DNA of 64,000 nucleotides from Escherichia phage L14. The position numbers and the translations under genes were made by a program. The notes below the pieces were generated by a model, which was given only the letters and a program-made list of their open reading frames with translations, did no database searches and was not told where the DNA came from. The stretch is taken from the sequence record OQ992558.1; one strand, given 5' to 3'. This document shows positions 10,737 through 52,840 of the stretch, in pieces; position 1 is the first letter of the stretch, and each line of letters opens with the position of its first letter.

Positions 10737-13001
10737 TCATAATTTACAGGATGAACAATCTTCAGCTTTTGGAGTTTCTATTTCATAATCATCAGTACCA
10801 GAACCATCGCGTGTATTATGATAATAGAAATTTTTAATGCCATAATACCATCCGTATAGCATGTCATCAATCATTATTGACATTGGAACCTTTCCTTTTG
10901 GAAAAATCTGCGGATCATAATATGTATTCGCTGAAGCTGATTGACATACCCATTTCAGCATAATAGCTACCTGCGTAAGATAAGGTTTATTACCTTTCTT
11001 GGCTAATTTCCATGTATAATCATAGAGGTCTATGTTATGCTCAATATTCGGAACAACTTGATTAAATGAACCATCTTTTGATTCTTTAACACTTACCGGT
11101 CCGCGTGGAGGCTCGATGCCGTTTGTACTGTTAGATACCTGACTGGACGATTCACAAGGCATAAGTGCTGATAATGTGCTATTACGGATGCCAAAGAGCT
11201 TAAGGTCTTCCCGCAGCGCCGACCAGTCACAAACGTATTTTGGAGCTGCGATTTGGTCAATCTTTTTATTGTACCAGTCGATAGGTAATTCGCCTCGAGA
11301 CCAACGAGTGTCTGAATAATATTCGCAAGGTCCTTTTTCTTTGGCGAGCTTAATGGATGCTTTAATGAGTCCATACTGTAATCTCTCAAATAATTCATGT
11401 GTTAAATCGTTAGCATCTTCATAAGAAGCAAAGTTACTTGCCAGCCAAGCTGCATAGTTGGTAACACCTACACCAAGGTTACGGCGCTTTTTAGCTTTTT
11501 CTGCTTCAGGAACTGGATATCCTTGGTAATCCAACAGATTATCAAGAGCACGAACTTGAACTTCTGCCAATTCATTAATTTTATCTTGGTCTTGCCAGTC
11601 AAAATTATCTAGTACGAATGCAGAGAGAGTACACAATCCAATTTCAGCATCAGGACTATTCACATCATTTGTTGGAATAGCAATTTCACAGCACAAGTTA
11701 CTCTGACGAATAGGCGCCTTTTCACGAATAAACGGAGTATAGTTATTCGTATTATCAATGAACTGCACATAAATCCTTGCGGTTCCTGAACGTTCAGTCA
11801 TGAGCAATTCAAATAGTTCACGGGCTTTAATACGCTTTTTACGAATATTAGGGTCTTTTTCTGCTGCTTCGTATAATTCACGGAAACGGTCTTGGTCTTT
11901 AAAATAAGAATAATAAAGCTCGCCACCCATTTCATGCGGACTGAACAAAGTAATGTAATCATTCTTTCCGAATCGTTCCATCATCAAATCATTCAGTTGA
12001 ACACCATAATCCATATGACGAATGCGGTTTTCTTCTACGCCTTTGTTATTTTTCAAAACAAGAAGATTTTCAACTTCCAAATGCCAAATAGGATAATAAG
12101 CAGTAGCAGCGCCGCCACGAATTCCACCCTGTGAGCATGATTTAACAGCAGTCTGAAAATGTTTCCAAAAAGGAATAACACCAGTATGGCGTACTTCACC
12201 CATGCCAATCTTAGAACCTTCAGCACGAATCATACCAACGTTAATACCAATTCCAGCGCGTTTAGAGATATATTCAACAATTGAAGCAGAAGCCTTATTG
12301 ATAGACTTCAGTGAATCGCCTGCCTCAATAACAACACATGAACTAAACTGCCGAGTTGGAGTACGGCAACCAGCCATAATAGGAGTTGGTAATGAAATCT
12401 GTCGAGTAGATACCGCTTCATAAAAACGGATAACATGTTTTAATCTATCAACAGGTTCATCTTGATGCAATGCCATTCCAATAGTCATAAATGCAAACTG
12501 TGGAGTTTCATAAATTTGACCAGTGGTTTTATCTTTAACTAGATATTTTTCTTTTAATTGCATCGCCCCGGAATAAGTAAATTCCATATCCCGCTCGTGC
12601 TTAATTTTTGATTCTAAAAATGTAATTTCTTCTGCTGAATATTTTGACAATAATTCAGGGTCATATTTACCTTCATTTACACAGTAAGAAATATGGTCAA
12701 TAAATGAACGTGGTTCATACTGCCCATAAACATGCTTACGAAGAGCGAACATTAAACAACGTGCAGCTACATATTGATAATCAGGCTCTTCAACCGAAAT
12801 AGAATTCGCAGCGGCCTTAATGACAATAGTCTGAATATCATCAGTTGTCATTCCATCACGGAGATAAGATTTAATATTTTCATATAATTCATAAGGATCT
12901 ACTGATGTTCCTTCAGCTGCCCAAGATAAAACTTTAATAATTTTTTGCGGGTCAAAGCTCTGAGAAACACCACTACTTTTGATAACATTAATTAATTGCA
13001 T
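10737..13001 (-). CDS. nrdA: ribonucleotide reductase large subunit (754 aa)
   Basis: Class Ia RNR alpha; C-terminal CSSCKL-type tail; length equals T4 NrdA. Confidence 0.92.
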   Translation of the reverse strand: MQLINVIKSSGVSQSFDPQKIIKVLSWAAEGTSVDPYELYENIKSYLRDGMTTDDIQTIVIKAAANSISVEEPDYQYVAARCLMFALRKHVYGQYEPRSFIDHISYCVNEGKYDPELLSKYSAEEITFLESKIKHERDMEFTYSGAMQLKEKYLVKDKTTGQIYETPQFAFMTIGMALHQDEPVDRLKHVIRFYEAVSTRQISLPTPIMAGCRTPTRQFSSCVVIEAGDSLKSINKASASIVEYISKRAGIGINVGMIRAEGSKIGMGEVRHTGVIPFWKHFQTAVKSCSQGGIRGGAATAYYPIWHLEVENLLVLKNNKGVEENRIRHMDYGVQLNDLMMERFGKNDYITLFSPHEMGGELYYSYFKDQDRFRELYEAAEKDPNIRKKRIKARELFELLMTERSGTARIYVQFIDNTNNYTPFIREKAPIRQSNLCCEIAIPTNDVNSPDAEIGLCTLSAFVLDNFDWQDQDKINELAEVQVRALDNLLDYQGYPVPEAEKAKKRRNLGVGVTNYAAWLASNFASYEDANDLTHELFERLQYGLIKASIKLAKEKGPCEYYSDTRWSRGELPIDWYNKKIDQIAAPKYVCDWSALREDLKLFGIRNSTLSALMPCESSSQVSNSTNGIEPPRGPVSVKESKDGSFNQVVPNIEHNIDLYDYTWKLAKKGNKPYLTQVAIMLKWVCQSASANTYYDPQIFPKGKVPMSIMIDDMLYGWYYGIKNFYYHNTRDGSGTDDYEIETPKAEDCSSCKL

Positions 13002-16713: not shown

Positions 16714-17094
16714 CTACTTTTTGAAAGTTTTTCGCAAAAGTTCAATGATTTCATCTACATTGTTTTCGTCAACAATGCAGTGAATTTTTGTTACGCCAGA
16801 AACTTTGTCTTTGACTTCATCTTCTTCAGAAGTCGGTTCTTTATACTCACGAAAACAATGAAATTCGTCTTCACAAACGTTAAAGTAAAAATGCTTTCCA
16901 TTTGCGCATTCAATGTGTTTTATTACTCTAAATCCATCAACAAAGAAAGCTTCTTTAACTTCAAACCATCCGCCATTTTCTTGAATAATTTTAACTATTG
17001 CTGAATTAGAACGTGGGCGATAATTAATAAATGTATCAATAAGTCTTGGAACAAGTTCATACTTTTTGCCGATTTCCATTTTGATTTTCCTCAT
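16714..17094 (-). CDS. hypothetical protein (126 aa)
   Basis: ORF in 32-frd interval. Confidence 0.45.
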   Translation of the reverse strand: MRKIKMEIGKKYELVPRLIDTFINYRPRSNSAIVKIIQENGGWFEVKEAFFVDGFRVIKHIECANGKHFYFNVCEDEFHCFREYKEPTSEEDEVKDKVSGVTKIHCIVDENNVDEIIELLRKTFKK

Positions 17095-48868: not shown

Positions 48869-50188
48869 TCACACATAAAACACATCATAACGACCACGAG
48901 TAACACCAACATAAAGAAGCTGCTGAGCTAGTTCAGCATCTGCATAATGAATACAAGGCGTATAGATGAAAGCACGGTCTACAGACATACCCTGCGCTTT
49001 ATGGAACGTTGATGCAGGAAGTGCTTTCACTTTACTAAACTGTGATTTAGCATCCCAAAAATCACTCCATGGAGCTTTTCCACCTTTATTCCAATTTTTA
49101 TAAGTTTCTGCCGTTTTACCTAAAAATAGGTTAAACTTATATAGCTCTTCATCAGATGAAATTATTTTAATCTTTTCACGATAATATTCATCATCGCCGT
49201 AAGTTTCTACTGTTAAATCCCAATGACGAATTAAGTATTCTCCAGGAACACCACGAGCTTTAACAAACGTCGATGTATACTCTGCTTCTATAATACGAAC
49301 TAATTGTCCGTTATTAAAAATAATTTCTGACACAGGCTTTCCATCAATTTTATATGTTTTAATTAATGGTTCCTGCATTACAATAATTTCACCGACAATA
49401 AAATCTTTATCAGTTTCAAAAATCTTTTTACGAATAATGCTATTTAACTTGTCAACAGATTTATTTGTAAATGCCATTACGCGATTTTCAAACAAATCGT
49501 CTAGTGATTTTACGATTGAAAAATAATTTACCATAAAATCGCGTAAAGCGGTATCACCAGTAAATCCACGTACTCCATGGCCGTCAACAACTTTATCATA
49601 AATCCACTTACCGTTGCGAACATCAGTAGCTACATCAATAATAGGAGCATTACTGCGTTTAACTTCAGTGAGTTCACGCTGATAAAAATCTTTGTGTGTA
49701 AAGAATGGACTGATATAAGCAGTATTTTCTCCTGGATCAACAGGTCTAATTTGCTTATTATCACCTATTCCAATTATAGTACACCAAGGTGGAATAGTTG
49801 AAAGCAGAATTTTAAATAGCTTTCTATCATACATTGACACTTCGTCGCAGATTAATACCCTGCATTTAGCTAAATCTGGTACTTCCTTCTGTTCAAAAAG
49901 AACGTTTTCTTCATACGTAACTGGGTTAATTTTAAGAATACTGTGAATAGTACTCGCTTCTTTCCCTGATAGTTTTGAAAGAATCTTTTTAGCTGCATGT
50001 GTAGGAGCTGCCAAAATGATACCAGTTTCGCCCGTAGATATTAAAGCTTCAATGATGAACTTAGTAAGAGTAGTCTTACCAGTACCAGCAGGTCCATTAA
50101 TAGTTACATGATGTTTCTTTTCTTTAATAGCCCTCATAACGATGTTAAAGGCATTTTTCTGGCCTTCAGTCAAATCATCAAATGTCAT
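48869..50188 (-). CDS. dda: Dda SF1B DNA helicase (439 aa)
   Basis: Walker A GPAGTGKT; matches recalled T4 Dda. Confidence 0.92.
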   Translation of the reverse strand: MTFDDLTEGQKNAFNIVMRAIKEKKHHVTINGPAGTGKTTLTKFIIEALISTGETGIILAAPTHAAKKILSKLSGKEASTIHSILKINPVTYEENVLFEQKEVPDLAKCRVLICDEVSMYDRKLFKILLSTIPPWCTIIGIGDNKQIRPVDPGENTAYISPFFTHKDFYQRELTEVKRSNAPIIDVATDVRNGKWIYDKVVDGHGVRGFTGDTALRDFMVNYFSIVKSLDDLFENRVMAFTNKSVDKLNSIIRKKIFETDKDFIVGEIIVMQEPLIKTYKIDGKPVSEIIFNNGQLVRIIEAEYTSTFVKARGVPGEYLIRHWDLTVETYGDDEYYREKIKIISSDEELYKFNLFLGKTAETYKNWNKGGKAPWSDFWDAKSQFSKVKALPASTFHKAQGMSVDRAFIYTPCIHYADAELAQQLLYVGVTRGRYDVFYV

Positions 50189-50496
50189 CGTAAATTCCCT
50201 GCAATTGGTATACTAACAATACGCCCAGTATCTAAAATTCGCTGATATAATCTTTGCGTGTCTACGTCAGGCTTAACATGTTTAACTTCTATTTTATTAA
50301 ACCAAAATTTACGTGGAGTCTCAACTAATCTTGGAATTCCTTTACCTAAAGCTAGTCGATACTGTTCTTTAAGAGTGGTAAATACTTTATCAGCAATCTT
50401 CCATTCAAAAAATACAGCAGGACGATGTTCATCAAGTGGAACTGGCGCCGTAAATCCGTCTTTGTCTCGGTAAACTATCGCATATACATAAACCAT
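50185..50496 (-). CDS. hypothetical protein (103 aa), dda.1 position
   Basis: ORF, 4-nt overlap with dda. Confidence 0.45.
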   Translation of the reverse strand: MVYVYAIVYRDKDGFTAPVPLDEHRPAVFFEWKIADKVFTTLKEQYRLALGKGIPRLVETPRKFWFNKIEVKHVKPDVDTQRLYQRILDTGRIVSIPIAGNLR

Positions 50497-50497
50497 A

Positions 50498-51244
50498 TTA
50501 TCCTCGGATAAGTTTAAAAATTGAACAATTTAGCGGGTATCCTCTTTTCAGTTTAAGTTTATCAATAAAAGACAAGTTTTGATACCGCTCTACACCTTGA
50601 ATAATTTTATCACACATATCATATTGCATTTCTGCTTCTGACAACTTTTTCACAGTTTTCCAATCCGAGCCTTTAAGAAGAACGTTCAATTTAACAACTT
50701 CAGCGCCTTCTGCTATACGAGAACCATCAATACGAGCTTTAAGTGCTATAATTCTTAGCTTAATGTCAGAGGTCTGTTTTGATTTAGAAAGCTGAGAAAT
50801 GTGTTCAATTCGGTTTTCACGTTTTTTCTGTATAGCTTTAATTTGATTATAGGTCTTTTTGATTTTAGCCCATTTCTTTTCATCTAAATTTAGTTTATGA
50901 ACTTTTTTCGCAGATGAACGACCAATTCGCAAAGCAAATAAATCACGCTTTTCAATCAACTCTTCTAAAGTATAATCAGAACGAAATGTATTATACTTTT
51001 TCTTTACTGCAATAACATTCCCTTTAATGTATCCAACGTTATTATCAAAACGTTCTAATGATAATTTCTCTCCTTCAATACGATTATCAAAAGGTTCTCC
51101 TGAGTAAGCGCAAACTTTCTGATCTAAAATATTCTTAATATAATTGAAGTCTAAGTTAAAATCTTTAGAACGTCTTTTTGCAGATGCCTGAGTATGCTCT
51201 AGACGACGTTTAATTTTACGAATTTGGTTATTAGATAGCTTCAT
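50498..51244 (-). CDS. srd: Srd-like protein (248 aa)
   Basis: Size and position between dda and modA; basic/coiled-coil. Confidence 0.55.
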   Translation of the reverse strand: MKLSNNQIRKIKRRLEHTQASAKRRSKDFNLDFNYIKNILDQKVCAYSGEPFDNRIEGEKLSLERFDNNVGYIKGNVIAVKKKYNTFRSDYTLEELIEKRDLFALRIGRSSAKKVHKLNLDEKKWAKIKKTYNQIKAIQKKRENRIEHISQLSKSKQTSDIKLRIIALKARIDGSRIAEGAEVVKLNVLLKGSDWKTVKKLSEAEMQYDMCDKIIQGVERYQNLSFIDKLKLKRGYPLNCSIFKLIRG

Positions 51245-51280
51245 ATTTTTCTCACATCTTACGGACGGTTAACTACTTAT

Positions 51281-51310
51281 ACTATAACATTTTTACTTCA
51301 GCTTGTAAAC
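51281..51310 (-). promoter_or_regulatory. T4-early-type promoter upstream of srd
   Basis: plus gtaaac 51305-51310, actata 51281-51286. Confidence 0.4.
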
Positions 51311-51321
51311 AACTTTATGTA

Positions 51322-51350
51322 AAAATGCTTTAAAACTTTCATGGTATAAT
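51322..51350 (+). promoter_or_regulatory. MotA-box middle-promoter-like element on plus strand (aaaTGCTTTA, 12 nt, TATAAT)
   Basis: TGCTTTA at 51326-51332, TATAAT at 51345-51350; orientation opposite to flanking genes. Confidence 0.35.
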
Positions 51351-51367
51351 GAATCTAAGTCCTTCCA

Positions 51368-51970
51368 TTATAGATTAAATCCTTCAAAATCAAGAGTATA
51401 GATAGTGTATGTTGAATACTTTTTGTACTCATATCTATCTGCAATTCTAAATACACTTCCAGCTGGTATCATTACTTCTTGTTCATCTGAAACTAATTCC
51501 ATATTACGATAACGATGGCTATCTGGAAACTTAAAACTTGGACTATATTCTTTACAACGTAGAGCTTTTATAGCATACTCCTGGAAATTAAATACCATAG
51601 GAGCTTTGAATTCAAAAATAACTTGTGTGTTATACTCTAAACCGGAAGCAAAATGTAGAGCTATATTTTTATCATATGAAGCTGATACTACTTTATCAAA
51701 TGTAATAATATCAATTCCTTGATTTAATACTTGCTTAGTCTCAGCTGGAACACCTCTCCAAAGAGGTTTATCGTTTGGTTCCAAACGAGATTTGATTATT
51801 TCATTTAACCAAGTATGGTCATCTGGTTTATTAGTAATACAATGAATTAAAAGTTCAATTTCAGATAAATTAAACCCTTCAGAAAGTAATTCTTCACGAA
51901 TAGAAGCACGCACCGATGCATCCATTGATTTTATTTTAAAATCTTTTAGTTGCATTACTGAGTATTTCAT
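51368..51970 (-). CDS. modA: ADP-ribosyltransferase ModA (200 aa)
   Basis: R-S-E ART motifs (LWRG, S-x-S, EQEVMIP); length as T4 ModA. Confidence 0.75.
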   Translation of the reverse strand: MKYSVMQLKDFKIKSMDASVRASIREELLSEGFNLSEIELLIHCITNKPDDHTWLNEIIKSRLEPNDKPLWRGVPAETKQVLNQGIDIITFDKVVSASYDKNIALHFASGLEYNTQVIFEFKAPMVFNFQEYAIKALRCKEYSPSFKFPDSHRYRNMELVSDEQEVMIPAGSVFRIADRYEYKKYSTYTIYTLDFEGFNL

Positions 51971-52590
51971 TCAACTACCTCAATATCATAAACTTTAAAT
52001 GTTCCAAATGAATCGTGTAATTTTTCTTTTGAAATAGAAGTTATTCTATACTTTCCAATTGGAATCATCCATTCTTGTTCACGCACAATCATCATTAAGT
52101 TATCAGTACGCTCTGAATCTAGCCCATCAGTATCTTCATACGTGTACTTAAACTCAGTATTAGGAGAAGAAAGTATAATATCGCTGATATGGTCAGAATA
52201 ATTAAAAGCTTTATCAGTTTTTAAGCGAAATATTATTTCAGTGAAATACTCAACATAAGAAAAACCACATGCTGTGTGCAAACTAGTAGTAAATGAATCT
52301 ACCCTATTCGTTGAAAACACTTCTCCAACTTGTAAATCTTTAATGAGTTCTTTTGTCGATTTTGATATACCACGATATAACTGATAAGGTGATTTAGTTA
52401 AATGCTTTTTAACGATTTTATTCAACTGCCGATGAAGAGCTTCATTCTTTTTAGCTTCCATACATTGCCAAAGAACTGACTGCTCAAAGTCAGTAAATTT
52501 TTCACAGACCTTTTTATACATATCATATTGAAAATCAACGCTTTCAGCTTTTATAGATAACTGTTCAACATCTGCAAGATTAATAATCAT
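51967..52590 (-). CDS. modB: ADP-ribosyltransferase ModB (207 aa)
   Basis: R-S-E ART motifs (LYRG, STN, EQEWMIP); paralogue of modA. Confidence 0.75.
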   Translation of the reverse strand: MIINLADVEQLSIKAESVDFQYDMYKKVCEKFTDFEQSVLWQCMEAKKNEALHRQLNKIVKKHLTKSPYQLYRGISKSTKELIKDLQVGEVFSTNRVDSFTTSLHTACGFSYVEYFTEIIFRLKTDKAFNYSDHISDIILSSPNTEFKYTYEDTDGLDSERTDNLMMIVREQEWMIPIGKYRITSISKEKLHDSFGTFKVYDIEVVE

Positions 52591-52616
52591 GATAGCCTCC
52601 GTATACTTCAGAAGCT

Positions 52617-52646
52617 ATCATATCATCGTTAGAAAGGAAAGTAAAC
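52617..52646 (-). promoter_or_regulatory. T4-early-type promoter upstream of modB
   Basis: plus gtaaac 52641-52646, atcata 52617-52622. Confidence 0.4.
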
Positions 52647-52657
52647 AACTTTTTGAA

Positions 52658-52840
52658 TTATTTTGCCCAAGGAGCCCAAGGCGGAGGGTCAAGATGGTAT
52701 GAAGCTAGTTCTTCTAGAAGAGCATCTGGGGCTTCAATTCCATAATTCTGTAATACTATACGGTACTCTTTCTTATAATCACTAGAATCATTCTGGATAT
52801 TCGTAGAATGATTATCTTCTAACATCTCAAATAAATCCAT
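52658..52840 (-). CDS. hypothetical protein (60 aa)
   Basis: ORF in modB-soc interval. Confidence 0.4.
   Translation of the reverse strand: MDLFEMLEDNHSTNIQNDSSDYKKEYRIVLQNYGIEAPDALLEELASYHLDPPPWAPWAK

Follow-up and report, generated by a model that had tools for sequence, protein, structure and literature searches.

For sigma appropriation, bacteriophage T4 serves as the reference system; roughly 60 of its middle promoters have been mapped, and every one of them serves genes on the minus strand. The middle-promoter consensus and the position of the MotA box were taken from Hinton (2010; PMC2988021). In the 58 T4 middle promoters mapped and listed there, the box lies at −30, 12 ± 1 bp from a TAnnnT −10 element that is preceded by TGn in about half of the cases; each of the 58 reads from the minus strand, shows the expected arrangement of box and −10, and serves prereplicative genes. 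PuvsY, the strong MotA-dependent middle promoter of uvsY, is at the same time the oriF origin promoter; its mapped start lies at T4 position 115371 on the minus strand, and it drives the protein gene uvsY via a 44-nt leader.

Phage promoters that fire against a neighbouring gene are known from several systems. The OOP transcript of lambda is a cis-antisense RNA whose duplex is cut by RNase III, and in coliphage 186 the convergent, overlapping promoters pR and pL constitute a switch that operates via transcriptional interference. The antisense RNA of T4 gene 32, described by Belin and colleagues in 1987, is said to originate from late-mode transcription. With gene 32 and OOP, a promoter on the opposite strand gives rise to an RNA complementary to the 3' part of the gene, and the same layout is predicted at modA by the site described below, which is of the MotA (middle) type, in contrast to the late-mode RNA of gene 32. 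Antisense transcription of gene 32 is on record (Belin et al., 1987, as cited in Hinton, 2010; PMC2988021), and a T4 dRNA-seq study (bioRxiv 10.1101/2024.04.04.588121, 2026 preprint version) reports 150 transcription start sites, 22 of them antisense.

A plus-strand MotA-type site between srd and modA

The window, that is the whole 64,000-nucleotide stretch of Escherichia phage L14 DNA that was analysed (OQ992558.1), belongs to a Tequatrovirus genome and is collinear with the T4 plus strand, with an identity over the region of 99.7% to phage U115 and of ∼96% to T4. The relevant features are as follows.

48869-50188, minus strand: dda
between dda and srd in gene order, minus strand: dda.1
50498-51244, minus strand: srd, which has a predicted reverse promoter upstream in every MotA-encoding lineage examined
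51281-51309, minus strand: srd early promoter, a textbook case for T4, with TTTACA at 51309-51304, 17 nt, and TG-TATAGT at 51286-51281
51323-51332, plus strand: MotA box AAATGCTTTA, 10 of 10 positions matching the consensus (a/t)(a/t)(a/t)TGCTTtA, centred near −30
51326-51332, plus strand: TGCTTTA core with AAA directly before it, read directly
51333-51344, plus strand: spacer of exactly 12 nt from the MotA box to the −10 hexamer, read directly
51342-51350, plus strand: extended −10 TGgTATAAT, with TG at 51342-51343 and the sigma-70 −10 hexamer TATAAT at 51345-51350
51342-51370, plus strand: 29-nt block TGGTATAATGAATCTAAGTCCTTCCATTA (−15 to +14), matching PuvsY/oriF and shared with the T4 site +76000
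51357, plus strand: predicted transcription start A51357, 6 nt past the −10 and positioned through its homology to the mapped start of PuvsY
51368-51970, minus strand: modA, encoding the RNA polymerase alpha ADP-ribosyltransferase
51967-52590, minus strand: modB, co-oriented with modA

The first-pass annotation had noticed a MotA box followed by 12 nt and TATAAT on the plus strand, and direct reading of the sequence proved it correct, the 12 nt being counted from the end of TGCTTTA and not from a trailing 'aaa'. The TATAAT hexamer with its TGn falls within the TAnnnT rule, at 12 ± 1 bp from the MotA box. No good sigma-70 −35 element takes the place of the box, as the hexamers located 16-18 nt upstream of the −10 read aaaaat, aaaatg and taaaaa, and a sigma-70 scan of positions 50400-52800 did not report the candidate as a −35/−10 promoter. 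The predicted start A51357 corresponds to position 11897 of T4 (NC_000866), and the candidate is directed rightward at the 3' end of modA, whose stop codon lies only 11 nt past this start; a plus-strand RNA would also cover modB if it were longer than 0.6 kb. T4 differs from the window here only in lacking 1 nt upstream of the box, and across the promoter phages JB75 and fPS-65 are identical to the window. The records of these two phages annotate the srd early promoter as a predicted promoter and no other promoter at this place, and the T4 records NC_000866 and AF158101 hold no promoter features.

The candidate and the srd early promoter stand back to back with ∼83 bp between their starts, their footprints overlapping in T4, and are so placed that the MotA box occupies about −52 to −58 of the srd early promoter. 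As this is the A/T-rich UP-element zone of that promoter, a chance match had to be considered.

Match statistics and likeness to PuvsY

A loose pattern, TGCTTNA-N11-13-TANNNT, matched 11 times in the window (eight times on the minus and three times on the plus strand) against 4.6 expected matches, and a plus-strand match to it is unremarkable by itself. The strict pattern TGCTTYA-N11-13-TATAAT was found three times on both strands of the window, where 0.07 matches are expected. For a quantitative comparison, a weight matrix consisting of the 10-nt box, a spacer of 11-13 nt and the 9-nt extended −10 was trained on the 58 promoters in the T4 list of Hinton (2010; PMC2988021). With 22.5 bits, the candidate ranked first among the 30 window sites of at least 13 bits (27 minus, three plus), and it also ranked first on both strands of the T4 genome, though it is outside the training set. 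It thereby outscores every one of the 58 promoters on a matrix built from those very promoters, and its rank did not change when the matrix was retrained without PuvsY, PnrdC.7 and PmobB. In orientation, a typical though not strictly defining trait of the class, the candidate departs from all mapped promoters, being on the plus strand whereas these are on the minus strand. The second rank in T4 is likewise held by a plus-strand site, with its start near position 76000 between genes 3 and 2 (21.6 bits), the third by PuvsY (21.1 bits), and the following plus-strand site reaches just 15.5 bits.

T4 genomes simulated by Markov-1 and Markov-3 models contained 0.01-0.02 sites of at least 21 bits on both strands together, while reproducing the observed plus-strand counts below 17 bits; the T4 plus strand thus amounts to a chance background plus two extreme outliers. 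The first-pass annotation had held that its reading would fall if chance statistics made the motif expected in this AT-rich genome. At 0.07 strict matches per window and 0.01-0.02 sites of at least 21 bits per genome this is not the case, and the candidate is not a chance match.

The likeness to PuvsY extends beyond the matrix elements. The two MotA boxes read TAATGCTTCA in PuvsY and AAATGCTTTA in the candidate, the extended −10 TGGTATAAT is common to both, and from −15 to +14 the sequences are equal at 27 of 29 positions, including an exact run of 21 nt (TGGTATAATGAATCTAAGTCC). In this alignment A51357 falls exactly on the mapped start of PuvsY. The two differ in the spacer, which measures 13 nt in PuvsY and 12 nt in the candidate, and in what lies downstream, as PuvsY serves a protein gene whereas the candidate runs antisense to modA. 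The T4 site +76000 carries TGGTATAATGGGTCTAAGTCCCTTCCAT in the corresponding block. A 9-mer within the block, TCTAAGTCC, is present in exactly three copies on both strands of T4, each at −3 to +6 of one of the three top-ranking sites, against ∼1.2 copies expected genome-wide by our own composition-based estimate; a motif scan of IMG/VR returned few T4-like contigs, two of which have three copies each, like T4. The resemblance to PuvsY is due in part to a general preference of strong middle promoters for a TATAATGGTTCTAAG-like discriminator and initial sequence, and TATAATGGTTCTAAG-like starts are also found at PnrdC.7 of T4 and at several RB69 sites. Judged by sequence, the candidate, +76000 and PuvsY nevertheless form a distinct trio in T4.

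The second reverse MotA-type site of T4 is located at ∼75960-76015 (plus strand, NC_000866) between the late genes 3 and 2. It consists of TAATGCTTTA, 13 nt and TGGTATAAT, scores 21.6 bits and reads antisense into gene 2, and the start block GGTCTAAGTCCCTTCCAT is common to it, PuvsY and the candidate. The site is kept in RB69 at 79256-79296 (plus strand, 15.8 bits). It is directed at oriE, which lies 3.3 kb to its right.

Application of the matrix to the minus strand also disclosed strong sites missing from the published table. One of them, at window position ∼3845 (T4 132780), consists of AACCGCTTTA, 13 nt and GAATATAAT and scores 18.2 bits, and another, of 17.1 bits, lies at T4 position 148338. 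At the listed start of Pcd (132839) no recognizable box or −10 is present (−4.9 bits); either the coordinate in the table is off by ∼59 nt, or there are two separate promoters.

Distribution of the reverse site among T4-like phages

Within Tequatrovirus, a 55-nt region across the site is identical or nearly so in ∼500 records, which says little since the overall identity within this genus is 95-98%. A reverse-strand site upstream of srd was found in seven Tevenvirinae lineages and in two Acinetobacter phages, hence in at least nine lineages. In the whole genome of RB69 the T4-trained matrix ranked the plus-strand site between srd and modA first, with its start at 12122 and 21.4 bits. The sites and the RB69 gene are listed below.

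RB69, 12149-12751, minus strand: modA
Mosigvirus WFbE185 and SF: reverse site in the srd-modA intergenic region, into modA, 21.4 bits
Gaprivervirus VR7: reverse site in the srd-modA intergenic region, into modA, 17.1 bits
Dhakavirus JS98: reverse site in the srd-modA intergenic region, into modA, 18.0 bits
Gelderlandvirus STP4-a: reverse site in the srd-modA intergenic region, into modA, 19.0 bits
Enterobacter phage id4496: reverse site in the srd-modA intergenic region, into modA, 16.0 bits
Jiaodavirus KP185: reverse site in the srd-modA intergenic region, into modA, 17.2 bits

For five of the six tabulated lineages no other site in the fetched locus, on whichever strand, scores above the reverse site; in VR7 it leads among the reverse-strand sites and is second overall, behind a minus-strand site of 17.97 bits. 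The intergenic DNA of these six lineages cannot be aligned to the window by BLAST, their ModA proteins are only 28-35% identical to that of the window, and the spacer sequence differs in RB69, VR7, JS98, STP4-a, id4496 and KP185 and is not conserved between genera. That box, spacing and −10 were kept while their surroundings changed is the signature of promoter selection. The claim of the first-pass annotation that a MotA-type middle promoter is aimed at the 3' end of modA is thus strongly supported, both by the sequence statistics and by a position and orientation that are kept across genera.

Phages of the same host groups and genera as the positive lineages were found to encode MotA homologues. 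In Krischvirus phiS, in contrast, the 4.7-kb locus (an ADP-ribosyltransferase gene, then srd) contains no site of at least 10 bits on either strand, and in RB49, the type member of Krischvirus, motA is not recognizable (PMC1524935). This is the distribution expected of a MotA site, present in MotA-encoding relatives and missing from phiS, with the absence of motA being known from RB49 and not from phiS. No reverse site was found in Yersinia phage MHG19, which has a truncated srd-like gene and no modA.

The published table of 58 mapped promoters (Hinton, 2010; PMC2988021) does not include the site, and a full-text literature search gave no discussion of antisense RNA, or of a middle promoter on the plus strand, at modA. 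In RB69, a hidden Markov model predicted the plus-strand promoters Pm:12081 and Pm:79256 (Nolan et al., 2006; PMC1524935, Additional file 4). The former (12081-12122, plus strand) is the homologue of the candidate, its low score of 7.9 being due to the penalty for a 1-bp insertion, and the latter (79256-79296, plus strand) is the homologue of T4 +76000. Both entries are coordinates in a supplement and predictions only; in a term search of the main text of that paper, 'antisense' occurred 0 times and 'modA' once, and no treatment of orientation or conservation was seen. The candidate would therefore appear to be an unusually oriented, conserved addition to a known promoter class, with a sequence match on record earlier in a relative.

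Two arrangements depart from that of T4. In the Acinetobacter phages PhT2 and Ac42 (Twarogvirinae), srd has no adjacent modA and a reverse MotA-type promoter is nonetheless predicted upstream of the srd early promoter, scoring 17.6 bits with a 14-nt spacer in PhT2 and 17.05 bits in Ac42. Some 120-135 nt past it lies a terminator hairpin that is strong and bidirectional, and the whole has the form of an sRNA-like unit. As the reverse site persists there without modA, the upstream region of srd is its constant partner, and overlap with modA is constant within Tevenvirinae only. These units are located at locus positions ∼1575-1711 (PhT2) and ∼1700-1825 (Ac42), both on the minus strand, and the predicted PhT2 RNA has a GC-rich internal hairpin; neither unit gave an Rfam match above threshold, and the sequences transcribed from the two bear no obvious similarity.

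The intergenic region of STP4-a and id4496 measures only ∼87 bp, and the reverse promoter stands face to face there with the srd early promoter (TTTACT or TTTACA, 17 nt, TAGAAT). The pair falls at locus positions ∼2140-2206 in STP4-a and ∼2080-2150 in id4496; the −10 elements are ∼13 bp apart and the predicted opposing starts about 4 nt apart. Since the starts nearly coincide, binding to the two promoters should be mutually exclusive, and the pair might possibly act as a directional early-to-middle switch. The arrangement resembles pR/pL of coliphage 186 in its opposed promoters with near-coincident starts, unlike that of T4 and the window, where the pair is back to back. Interference would there hit the upstream modB-modA unit and not srd.

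Predicted RNA, possible role and competing explanations

The plus strand of the modA-modB interval contains no open reading frame of at least 40 amino acids (none is longer than 38), Rfam has no family for the predicted RNA, and neither a conserved intrinsic terminator within 260 nt nor a conserved RNA structure was detected in the modA-carrying lineages. The RNA is thus most likely non-coding. Terminator-like hairpins on the plus strand inside modA and modB are weak and none before modB is convincing; the length of the RNA would be set by Rho or by head-on polymerase collisions. A 14-codon open reading frame on the minus strand of the intergenic region was rejected, as a 1-nt indel breaks its reading frame in T4.

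Viewed from the antisense strand of modA, two adjacent short palindromes, CTACGC-nnn-GCGTAG followed by TCCC-nnn-GGGA, recur at about +110 to +140 of the predicted RNA in three genera (RB69, VR7 and JS98), and a two-sided change in RB69 (CTACAC...GTGTAG) preserves the pairing. They may represent an RNA hairpin or a codon-level coincidence in a similar stretch of ModA.

All in all, the candidate is very probably a true middle promoter of the sigma-appropriation kind, dependent on MotA/AsiA and located on the 'late' strand, and we consider it likely to be a working one. MotA and AsiA are produced early. From ∼1-2 min after infection, MotA bound at AAATGCTTTA and polymerase carrying AsiA-remodelled sigma-70 would open TGgTATAAT and initiate at A51357, as suggested by the sequence and the PuvsY homology. 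Transcription would then proceed head-on into the modB-modA early unit and yield an RNA complementary to modA and perhaps modB, and expression of the toxic modB-modA unit after the early period would most likely be lowered by transcriptional interference, by sense/antisense pairing or by both. Polymerase on the candidate would also overlap with the srd early promoter, in the UP-element and −35 zone of the latter. Such an antisense shut-off of modA and modB is plausible: as production of ModA is strongly toxic to E. coli and the mechanism by which T4 early transcription is shut off is described as unknown (Hinton, 2010; PMC2988021), a local, MotA-timed device would make sense. Against a modA-silencing role, deletion of modA leaves the early shut-off unchanged (Hinton, 2010; PMC2988021), and PhT2 and Ac42 keep the reverse promoter without an adjacent modA, so that antisense control of modA cannot be the sole selected function. 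Selection may instead act on srd, on the srd early promoter or on the RNA as such, and not on modA in particular. We therefore put forward antisense or convergent control of modA/modB as the main role only tentatively, as a reading that could well turn out either way.

The alternatives differ in what they take to be under selection. It is possible, if unlikely, that the promoter is real and is kept because it and the srd early promoter form a divergent or overlapping pair, or because it is the source of a discrete small RNA, its overlap with modA in Tevenvirinae being incidental; middle-mode polymerase would displace sigma-70 polymerase from the srd early promoter in a directional early-to-middle switch, or else the short 5' RNA would itself be functional. 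This accords with the reverse promoter lying upstream of srd in every MotA-encoding lineage examined, PhT2 and Ac42 included, where the transcript would end after ∼120-135 nt at the strong bidirectional terminator, with starts only ∼4 nt apart in STP4-a and id4496, and with the position of the T4 box in the UP-element zone. However, the geometry relative to the srd early promoter varies from back to back at differing distances to face to face, which argues against a single fixed occlusion mechanism, the Acinetobacter unit sequences are similar neither to each other nor to T4, and the 14-nt spacer of PhT2 is beyond the 11-13 nt of the mapped T4 promoters. An oriF-like element, whose MotA-dependent transcript would form an R-loop just downstream and prime rightward leading-strand synthesis or make a recombination hot spot, is suggested by the near identity of the candidate core with PuvsY, the oriF promoter; oriF and oriG consist of a middle promoter plus a downstream unwinding element that is not sequence-specific (PMC3016281), and the +1 to +60 region of the candidate, with 72% A+T, slightly exceeds that of PuvsY. 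We regard this as very unlikely, given that the annotated T4 origins are at 16763 (oriA), 79355 (oriE), 115321 (oriF) and 152947 (oriG), with none mapped at 11897 and the nearest, oriA near soc, 4.9 kb off. Moreover, the origin-fragment screens summarized in PMC3016281 yielded oriF and oriG only, and downstream A+T content or duplex stability fails to separate origin promoters from the others, P34i/oriG ranking 48th of 58.

Quite unlikely, too, is a silent consensus match, conserved or bound by MotA without productive transcription in vivo, for instance owing to the DNA-modification context or to competition from the strong srd early promoter. Its absence from the 58 mapped promoters would fit such a site, and consensus-like sites that are inactive in vivo are on record in the form of GATT boxes (Hinton, 2010; PMC2988021), from which the candidate differs by its canonical TGCTTTA. 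Earlier mapping seems, to judge from the published list, to have centred on minus-strand gene transcripts. Some good consensus matches are reported, by Stoskiene and colleagues in 2007, to yield no transcript in vivo or in vitro. Yet both elements and their spacing are kept while the spacer sequence diverged in at least seven Tevenvirinae lineages, which is hard to explain without use by polymerase. That the srd early promoter, with its AT-rich UP-element region, gave rise to the match by chance might have been suspected from the commonness of the loose pattern and from the overlap of the box with that A/T-rich zone, but this is effectively refuted by the rarity of strict matches and of sites of at least 21 bits, by retention of the site across genera with differing UP-element sequences and by the 29-nt block that extends the likeness to PuvsY.

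Should the strongest consensus site of the genome be active on the opposite strand and have been retained across two T4-like subfamilies, the middle mode has a conserved non-coding or antisense output that is missing from current maps. The candidate would then offer a concrete, mutable intergenic element for probing a contribution of antisense or convergent transcription to the silencing of the toxic early genes modA and modB, and it also bears on the competition of neighbouring early and middle promoters for polymerase. A wider proposal, which we consider unlikely, is that 'reverse' middle promoters make up a small class conserved in T4-type phages and do not serve gene expression. This class, represented in T4 by +11897 facing modA and +76000 facing gene 2, both having the PuvsY/oriF core and its +1 block, would set polymerase of the middle mode on a head-on course into units that are early or not yet active, or seed R-loops. 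Were this true, T4 would possess a built-in, MotA-timed local shut-off of early genes or a priming of rightward replication, and part of the still unexplained early shut-off might be accounted for.

Two further elements were observed in the neighbourhood. The motif CGTCCGTAAGA lies in the srd 5' UTR (window 51267-51257, minus strand) and occurs as a single copy in T4 and as a single copy in RB69; it is kept at the same place in VR7, JS98 and KP185 despite diverged intergenic surroundings, and in KP185 it falls within the spacer of the reverse promoter. A 14-bp hairpin at window 52588-52622 (minus strand), made up of TATGATAGCTTC...GGAGGCTATCATG, holds the modB Shine-Dalgarno sequence and AUG paired to a segment in which the −10 (TATGAT) of the proximal early promoter is located. 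Translation of modB would accordingly be shut on read-through transcripts and open on transcripts from the proximal early promoter. Hairpin arrangements of this kind are known for the T4 genes e, soc and 49.
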